Part shown: positions 30,531-32,117 of the stretch, in pieces | Numbering within the stretch: the first letter of the stretch is position 1 | How the letters are laid out: every line of letters begins with the position of its first letter | Virus record (IMG/VR): IMGVR_UViG_3300034079_000006 | Span: 1 to 40,043 of that record | Reading direction: 5' to 3' (one strand) | Length of the DNA: 40,043 nucleotides | Origin: a virus | Lineage: Duplodnaviria > Caudoviricetes | The notes under the pieces: generated by a model | The model's database searches: none | The model's input: only the letters and a program-made list of their open reading frames with translations | What the model was told of the DNA's origin: nothing | Made by a program: the position numbers and the translations under genes

Positions 30531-30559
30531 ATTATGACGCATGAAAAATAAATTGTCAA
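30531..30559 (-). promoter_or_regulatory. sigma70 promoter driving cro and the replication genes
   Basis: TTGACA (30559-30554) - 17 bp - CATAAT (30536-30531); ATG 7 nt downstream. Confidence 0.8.
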
Positions 30560-30565
30560 GATGTG

Positions 30566-30594
30566 TTGACAAGATAAATTGATTGGCATATGAT
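30566..30594 (+). promoter_or_regulatory. sigma70 promoter driving the early plus-strand operon
   Basis: TTGACA (30566-30571) - 17 bp - TATGAT (30589-30594). Confidence 0.85.
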
Positions 30595-30600
30595 TCAGTC

Positions 30601-30837
30601 ATCGCAAAACGAAACGACACAACCCAGCCCGACGCAACGAGGGCTTTTATCCGAACCGCATGGCGCTAGGGGGTTTAGCTACTAAGTGGCGCAGTGGAGT
30701 TAGGCGGGTAGAGAGTGATTCGATGAAGTGGCTACATGACGGGAGTGTTTCCCTCTGTGCTGATCAGACTGGTTAAGCGAACGTAGCCTAGCCACTTCTT
30801 CGAATTGCTCTCTAGGTCAATCAACCAAGGAGTGAAT
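30601..30837 (+). other. Structured ~240-nt 5' leader (candidate regulatory RNA)
   Basis: Hairpin AGCCC...GGGCT-TTTAT at 30626-30650; 26-bp stem 30709-30734 / 30789-30814 with one mismatch and two G-U pairs. Confidence 0.6.
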
Positions 30838-31779
30838 ATGGCAACACGTAAAAAGAAATCTGAGACAGCACTTGTGCTGCGCTGCTGCAACTCAGACATG
30901 AGCAGCAAAAACGGCTTTGTCTGGCCCGGTGTCGGCGGCATCGCAACTGCGCCAGATTGGAAAGATGATGGAGAATGCGGGTCTGGCCTGCACGGTTGGC
31001 TGTATGGGCAAGGCGATCACAACACCAGTGATTATTGGAATCAAATTGATGCAAAGTGGCTGGTTGTCGAGGTGAAATTTTCCAGCATCAGAATGCTGGG
31101 CGGAAAGTGCAAATTCCAGAGAGGAAAAGTTGTTTTTATTGGCACTAAATCAGAAGCTGCCGACTACATTGTTTTAAACGAACCGCAGGCTGCGAATGTT
31201 TCGGTGATCGGATTGATCGCTGAATGTGGCGAAGGCGGCGTTTTGCAAGGAGGTGCGCTATCGGTGCTGACCGGCGGCTACTCCGCAACGATGACCGGCG
31301 GCAACTCCGCAACGATGACCGGCGGCAACTCCGCAACGATGACCGGCGGCTACTCCGCAAAGATGACCGGCGGCAACTACGCAACGATGATCGGCGGCAA
31401 CTACGCAACGATGACCGGAGGCCACTCCGCAAAGATGACCGGCGGCGAATCCGCAACGATGACCGGCGGCGAATCCGCAACGATGACCGGCGGCTACTCC
31501 GCAACGATGACCGGCGGCAACTCCGCAACGATGACCGGAGGCAACTACGCAACGATGACCGGCGGCTACTCCGCAAAGATGACCGGCGGCGAATCCGCAA
31601 CGATGACCGGCGGCCACTACGCAACGATGACCGGCGGCAACTACGCAACGATGCACTTCGCTTATTTTGATGGCAAGCGCGACCGCACTGTTATTGGATA
31701 TGTTGGTGAGGACGGAATTAAGCCAAACATTGCTTACATACTTGATTCGAATCACAAAATTGTCGAGGTTATCAAATGA
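30838..31779 (+). CDS. Ice-nucleation-protein (InaZ)-like protein, miniature (313 aa)
   Basis: N-domain ALVLRCCNSDM...GFVWP...GLHGWLYGQG...DAKWLVVEV...KFQRGKVVFIG; 16 octapeptide repeats TGG[YNHE][SY]A[TK]M; C-domain FDGKRDR...GEDGIKPNIAY; AAGGAG RBS. Confidence 0.75.
   Translation: MATRKKKSETALVLRCCNSDMSSKNGFVWPGVGGIATAPDWKDDGECGSGLHGWLYGQGDHNTSDYWNQIDAKWLVVEVKFSSIRMLGGKCKFQRGKVVFIGTKSEAADYIVLNEPQAANVSVIGLIAECGEGGVLQGGALSVLTGGYSATMTGGNSATMTGGNSATMTGGYSAKMTGGNYATMIGGNYATMTGGHSAKMTGGESATMTGGESATMTGGYSATMTGGNSATMTGGNYATMTGGYSAKMTGGESATMTGGHYATMTGGNYATMHFAYFDGKRDRTVIGYVGEDGIKPNIAYILDSNHKIVEVIK
31270..31653 (+). repeat. Coding tandem repeat, 16 x 24 bp
   Basis: Consensus ACCGGCGGC(T/A/C)ACT(C/A)CGCAA(C/A)GATG with GAA variants; no spacers. 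Confidence 0.97.
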
Positions 31780-32117
31780 ATGCACAAATTGACATGGAAC
31801 AGCTCGCATCCCAGGTCTGCGGCTTTGCGCCAAAGAGCTTAGTCAAGCAGCTTGCAGAGTACAAGCGTACCGAGGGCTACGGGTCAAACTTTGTTGCTGA
31901 AACCGCGCTAGGAGAAGGCGATGGAAAGGTTTCGGTCTACTTCAACACCGACAGCGAAAGTGATCCGGTCGACCTGCGCATCTGGCATAGTGGCACTGAG
32001 GTCACATCAATCATGACTGCGGACCAACTGACACGCTGCATTGACGCCTGCGAAAAGGCGCTGCCGAAACAACTCAAATCTTACAACAACGACATGATGA
32101 TTGCGAGGACGGTATGA
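31776..32117 (+). CDS. Hypothetical protein
   Basis: 113-aa ORF, ATGA-coupled at both ends. Confidence 0.75.
   Translation: MNAQIDMEQLASQVCGFAPKSLVKQLAEYKRTEGYGSNFVAETALGEGDGKVSVYFNTDSESDPVDLRIWHSGTEVTSIMTADQLTRCIDACEKALPKQLKSYNNDMMIARTV

Follow-up and report, generated by a model that had tools for sequence, protein, structure and literature searches.

A phage Bbp36/DUF7666-family protein homologous to bacterial ice-nucleation proteins and its predicted ADP-ribosyltransferase-like head

What does a bacteriophage do with a gene resembling those for bacterial ice-nucleation proteins (INPs)? The question is raised by a 313-aa open reading frame (ORF) in IMG/VR record IMGVR_UViG_3300034079_000006, the complete 40,043-bp genome of a P22-like podovirus with P22-type portal and coat genes (hereafter the window, i.e., the whole stretch analysed). 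An earlier note proposed that the product, here called P0001, is a miniature InaZ-like ice-nucleation protein, or alternatively belongs to a phage solenoid family that shares ancestry with INPs and has a role in host takeover or anti-defence. The alternative turned out to be the better-supported branch, and a predicted ADP-ribosyltransferase (ART)-like head provides it with a mechanism. The gene and its parts are as follows.

30827..30832, plus strand: Shine-Dalgarno-like AAGGAG, 5 nt before the ATG
30838..31779, plus strand: ORF of the P0001 gene, 313 aa, a DUF7666 / PHROG 18079 / Bbp36-family protein
30862..31197, plus strand: globular head (residues ~9-120) of predicted ART-like fold, homologous to the INP N-domain and probably remotely homologous to the C-terminal domain of T4 RIIB
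31198..31272, plus strand: irregular first solenoid turns linking the head to the repeats (AlphaFold strands 127-130, 135-137 and 143-146)
31273..31656, plus strand: array of 16 x 24-bp units resembling variable region 2 (VR2), equal to 8 sixteen-residue beta-solenoid coils
31645..31776, plus strand: C-terminal cap FDGKRDR...GEDGIKPNIAY, homologous to the INP C-cap

P0001 was compared with six INP genes sourced from Pseudomonas-genus genomes, among which PF00818 was found in 7 of 301. The head matched INPs in all five comparisons at 33-38% identity (50-62 bits), and the C-cap in all six at 31-36% ungapped identity over 39-40 aa; further matches between heads and INP N-domains reached 75-85 bits. 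In hhalign, the head profile aligned with the INP head at 99.89% (E 6e-33, 107 columns), and the Atlas models of a P0001-type head and an INP head superposed with a TM score of 0.87. The N- and C-terminal parallels to InaZ drawn in the earlier note hold against real INP genes, and the profile check of the head together with the six cap matches confirms that P0001 and INPs are homologous end to end. A word-index search for longer homologs, an insensitive method, did not recover INPs.

Between the two caps, the 16 octapeptides claimed at the outset are indeed present. The units are in frame and follow the pattern GG[NYEH][SY]A[TK]M[TI], the final one ending in H. Tandem Repeats Finder reported a period of 24, 16.1 copies, 91% matches and a score of 611 for this array, which is the only long one in the window. 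In units 1-15, codons 2, 5 and 7 are identical, and codons 3, 4 and 6 vary non-synonymously. The TxT motif occurs in 11 of the 16 units, in agreement with the earlier description of the octapeptides as mostly TxT, and Tyr at position 3 in four (4/16). An AlphaFold model of P0001 (predicted local distance difference test score 95.9) shows the head to about residue 120, one strand per 8 residues from 127 to 265 and then the cap, i.e., a predicted beta-solenoid of ~8-9 coils where ~8 had been expected. The N-domain proposed in the earlier note was set too large at ~140 aa, since residues 127-145 already form solenoid turns. INPs of the InaZ/InaK/PbINP type (PF00818) share with P0001 a flat beta-solenoid built from 8-residue half-coils with TxT. 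They differ in having an alternating 16-mer rather than an 8-mer, a long flexible linker that P0001 lacks, and a head without D40, C47, H52 and K90, all of which are kept in the P0001 head. Neither a PF00818 match, i.e., coils of the AGYGSTxTAGxxSxLT type, nor a regular Tyr ladder was found in P0001. The four full-length INPs possess ~51-73 coils and 10-15 basic residues at position 12, whereas the P0001 solenoid contains no Arg at all; the absence of Arg-rich coils and the far smaller number of coils had been anticipated correctly.

P0001 is an ordinary member of a large, known and uncharacterised phage family. Its head matches Pfam PF24703 (DUF7666) at 34.8 bits against a cut-off of 27, the protein belongs to PHROG 18079 (E 2e-85), and it has the traits of the Bbp36/DUF7666-solenoid family, namely the DUF7666 head, an in-frame variable 24-bp array and a conserved C-cap. 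A head-only search gave 1,435 clusters at 50% identity. One named relative is Bbp36 of Bordetella phages BPP-1, BMP-1 and BIP-1, a full-length homolog (45-50% identity over 96%, 49% for BPP-1; head 62%) which carries VR2 and likewise combines in-frame 24-bp repeats with constant and variable parts and a position in the early region. In Bbp36, however, the unit is AGxxGTAT rather than GGxxATMT, and its gene lies several genes downstream of cI in BPP-1, whereas the P0001 gene is first behind a promoter in a P22-like podovirus. According to PMC2884959, VR2 comprises 9-20 copies of the unit, is seemingly not linked to BPP-1 tropism and is dispensable. Homologs of P0001 occur in phages of Bordetella bronchiseptica and Pseudomonas aeruginosa. 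Across the family, repeats were detectable in 187 of 264 proteins, with copy numbers of 1-20, and TxT predominates in 95 of 103 genes; some relatives with the same cap have ASGxxSQL, SSGxxAQI or TTGxxAPA repeats, without TxT. In one related contig 288 nt (12 units) are missing in frame, possibly by assembly collapse. The family's neighbours are early and regulatory genes without a fixed partner, an HTH (helix-turn-helix) repressor-type gene being present in 39 of 119 loci. In two loci (L016 and L121) two family paralogs stand in tandem, and one L121 copy has only ~2 repeats. Residues 137-310 of P0001 also match NCBIfam PRK09946/YdhT weakly (E 1e-4, far below the cut-off), which may be another offshoot of solenoid and cap in bacteria. 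Two members bear functional names in GenBank: Burkholderia phage Mica gp52 (QPB08664.1) is labelled 'ice nucleation protein' after a BLASTp match to Q47879 with E 4e-10. The label on gp30c of Acinetobacter phage fLi-Aba02 (QJT69938.1), which is of the distant YKxF...CxxGFH subtype, is 'putative ADP-ribosyltransferase'. These are annotation labels only, and neither record links ice nucleation with ADP-ribosyltransferase.

The head is predicted to adopt an ART-like fold. R15, D20, D40, C47, H52, K90 and K92 are conserved in the DUF7666 head; by strand order, not residue superposition, R15 and H52 fall on the first two core strands, and strand 5 carries K90, K92 and F93. Among the ART triads considered for strands 1, 2 and 5 (H-H-h, H-Y-E, R-S-E or the hybrid R-H-h), R15 and H52 would supply the first two positions, like R6 and H31 in TreTu, and C47 with K90/K92 may complete the pocket. 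Identity between the P0001 head and the small ART-fold enzymes TreTu (R-H-h), KptA/Tpt1 and CC0527 (H-H-h) and Arr is 8-14%, and the head differs from them in the Lys/Phe on strand 5, the conserved Cys and the fusion to a solenoid. If the fold is as predicted, the INP head is likely an inactivated enzyme. A PDB sequence search with P0001 and the head profile gave no matches, a Foldseek search of the whole model against PDB gave nothing at E<=0.001, and an Atlas feature search excluding the DUF7666 and INP clusters gave no usable match. Generic solenoids dominated the matches of the whole-model VIA search. Models suggest that an 'ART-like head plus repeat sensor' is a recurring design. In giant viruses and phages, BFVD and Atlas rows show the same head fold combined with ankyrin, pentapeptide, leucine-rich, DUF4116 and YdcK-type repeats.

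Searches of viral models with the head also led to RIIB proteins, which matched at TMq 0.60-0.68. A 10-row profile of the RIIB C-domain aligned motif on motif with the head at 67%, above 60 of 60 shuffles, and K...CxxGLH...K was present in all 10 rows. Head against T4 RIIB alone gave 1.9% in hhalign, and the score of INP heads against RIIB did not stand out from shuffles, 18 of 60 of which reached it. Like the P0001 head, the T4 RIIB C-terminal domain (residues ~205-312), encoded by an accessory phage gene, shows a basic residue on strand 1 (K215 in T4), the CxxGLH motif (C252/H257) and a late Lys (K295); RIIB differs in having an N-terminal HTH and no solenoid, and in working with RIIA. The full RIIB architecture was absent here: P0001 had no RIIB PHROG match, and a scan of 31 window proteins found no rIIA. 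The P0001 head and the C-terminal domain of T4 RIIB are likely remote homologs. According to bioRxiv 10.1101/2023.05.28.542683 and PMC13716836, RIIAB counters RexAB by a mechanism described as unclear, and RIIB is toxic in E. coli.

A second association concerns A1S_2505, a domain fused to 2 of 264 family proteins and, counting adjacent genes as well as fusions, present in 6 of 137 loci; this genome lacks it. Among the PDB matches of its profile, macrodomains made up 6 of 9 sequences, with non-significant E. A macrodomain eraser may partner the head in some relatives. This A1S_2505 'phage non-structural protein' domain (P0015, P0025, P0267, L005, L015, L036, L069, L076 and L113) carries a RIGCGLAG motif and is TARG1-type macrodomain-like; it is fused to two different DUF7666 subtypes, and UniRef names P0357 a macro domain.

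Upstream of the gene lie two back-to-back promoters.

30531..30559, minus strand: divergent sigma70-like promoter, 11/12, before a 52-aa Cro-like gene (30524-30366)
30566..30594, plus strand: sigma70-like promoter TTGACA-17-TATGAT, 11/12

The near-consensus promoter noticed earlier is confirmed, and the P0001 gene begins 244 nt after it; promoter-like matches under a looser search numbered 4 against a shuffle mean of 3.9. That P0001 is the first gene holds for the assembly, apart from a 38-codon leader ORF, but in 3 of 4 runs variants have a different 486-base stretch between the promoter and the gene. The genes that follow downstream include those for ASCH and a YqaJ recombinase. From its position and the lambdoid-type divergent promoter, we infer that the P0001 gene belongs to the early arm and is expressed early.

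We put at about one half the probability that P0001 is an early-infection, ART-like counter-defence effector whose length-variable solenoid picks targets, and that INPs are a derived offshoot in which the head was inactivated and the solenoid expanded. P0001 would be made right after entry; its head would bind nicotinamide adenine dinucleotide (NAD+) in the R15/H52 cleft and ADP-ribosylate or block a host defence, takeover or housekeeping target; the flat solenoid, reshuffled by slippage of 24-bp units, would select or hold that target; and P0001 would be dispensable on a permissive host. A distinctly less probable, though still serious, competitor takes the head to be ART-like in fold but no transferase: it would damp a host defence by binding a metal (Cys47/His52/Asp40), NAD+ or an immune signal of the ADP-ribose type, or by serving as a decoy, with the solenoid as a protein-binding scaffold. 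Strand 5 indeed has no Glu, but TreTu and KptA are active without one. The conserved Cys, His and Asp could serve as ligands, Z scores to active ARTs are low, and the ART-like domain of CNFy, a top match, has no confirmed activity; the association with a likely macrodomain, on the other hand, suggests actual modification. That P0001 acts on the virion or cell surface as an adhesin or a fibre-like component, with repeats varying host binding, is very improbable. The solenoid does resemble adhesin and tailspike beta-helices, and the variable residues sit at turn positions, yet the gene stands in the arm opposite the structural genes, VR2 length seems not to follow BPP-1 tropism, and bbp36 can be dispensed with.

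The chance appears equally slim for the headline of the earlier note, in which the infected cell would produce P0001 as a small but working ice nucleator. In its favour, both caps are homologous to those of INPs, the 8-residue periodicity is common to them, and the Mica homolog bears its label, from BLASTp alone. According to PMC9418140, however, a 12-repeat PbINP is inactive and the minimum is 13-15 coils, and PMC10727499 postulates that at least 8 Arg-rich coils (~8) are required. Against 13-15 or more coils including ~8-12 Arg-rich ones, P0001 offers 8 regular coils (8-9 in all) and no Arg. The shortage of coils, the missing Arg, the lack of a regular or continuous Tyr ladder and the occurrence of homologs in phages of B. 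bronchiseptica and P. aeruginosa make ice nucleation by P0001 unlikely, and 'miniature ice-nucleation protein' is not supported as a statement of function. Somewhat less remote, but still unlikely, is a solenoid that acts as an ice-binding (antifreeze or recrystallisation-inhibiting) module protecting hosts during infection or lysogeny, whether or not the head has another role. In its favour, TxT is the prevailing motif in 95 of 103 family genes, and an antifreeze solenoid ranks first in the whole-model structure search, though tied with the unrelated curli, TibA and RTX solenoids. The hosts of close homologs just named, the family-wide range of repeat numbers and the same-cap relatives devoid of TxT all speak against this function, as do Thr rows interrupted by Lys or Ile in 4 units and the lack of a strongly hydrophobic export or anchor segment (top 19-residue hydropathy 1.27).

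In which direction did descent run? INP heads form one clade in both rooted and unrooted trees. The unrooted tree was built from 72 of 86 rows, after 6 outgroup rows, 7 long branches and 1 duplicate (14 in all) had been dropped. A split with support 97 groups the INP heads with 27 family rows and separates them from the window/BPP-1 clade, so that they are nested unless the root lies on the INP branch. The rooted tree is unreliable because its outgroup, of the YKxF type, reaches just 1.3% in alignment with the family. In an approximately unbiased (AU) test with a distant outgroup, family monophyly was not rejected and the constrained tree scored higher, so that the tree alone is not decisive. 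Parsimony favours derivation of INPs: DUF7666 proteins of the phage type, although far more distant than INP, have retained a short solenoid, the cap and CxxG[LF]H, and the viral protein L136 lies closest to INP at both ends and still has the motif. The L136 protein (L136:6022-6804, on an IMG/VR contig) takes first place among 385 sequences whether these are ranked by the profile of the INP head or by that of the INP cap. It shares 44-50% head and 41-50% cap identity with INPs, has GGYGSTLT/GGNRSTLT repeats with an almost identical last coil, and keeps CGNGLHG. We regard it as a candidate intermediate between the phage family and INP. P0001 ranks 210 and 92 in the same ordering and is a cousin, not the nearest relative. 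The P0001 family is likely the stock that gave rise to ice nucleators: bacterial INP would have arisen from the phage superfamily by loss of D40, C47, H52 and K90 from the head, insertion of a linker, doubling of the 8-mer to a 16-mer and expansion to 50-70 coils.

Several further observations concern the surroundings of the gene. The 244-nt leader contains a predicted 24-bp stem (30710-30734 with 30789-30813; z -2.9, 1 of 200 shuffles as stable), which falls in the stretch swapped for 486 other bases by variants in three runs; the leader had no match in Rfam, and the 486-nt insert gave no alignment at 80% with the macro-like gene of L005. Just past the promoter is a GCCC...GGGC hairpin (30627-30645), which we take to resemble a lambdoid boxB stem. 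In population variants the next gene (31824-32113; 113 aa, matching no family) is either exchanged for other sequence or skipped, as in a hypervariable accessory block. The window also carries two DNA methyltransferases and a homing endonuclease-like ORF beside the coat gene, and neither cI nor integrase was found among the 31 proteins scanned. The datasets best matching it are sediment metagenomes.

The INP likeness of the family is already present as database labels. No link of the phage Bbp36/DUF7666 head to an ART fold, to INP head inactivation or to RIIB was found in the literature searched, to which subscription papers and supplements did not belong. Forbes et al. (2022, PMC9418140) report that they found no structural homologs of INP terminal domains, the word 'phage' is absent from the main text of the INP papers PMC9418140, PMC12978214 and PMC10727499, and the available parts of PMC11515562, PMC13001434 and PMC7824862 hold nothing on a phage-INP-ART link.

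A broader proposal, which we hold tentatively and at less than even odds, is that the DUF7666 head represents an active, hitherto unrecognised ART clade (R/K-H-K) spread across phages and giant viruses and including the T4 RIIB C-terminal domain, which would explain RIIAB versus RexAB. INPs, and via them the fungal ones, would then be domesticated phage effectors, with a dead head and a solenoid amplified into an ice template, L136 being intermediate-like. An origin for biological ice nucleation would be provided by phage proteins that have the two caps and a short solenoid and whose head is intact, and the head of INPs would be explained as an enzyme that is likely dead. With less security, the fold assignment can be carried over to T4 RIIB, where it points to residues. 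The findings also correct the naming of phage genes as 'ice nucleation protein', through which they could be miscounted as climate-relevant auxiliary genes.
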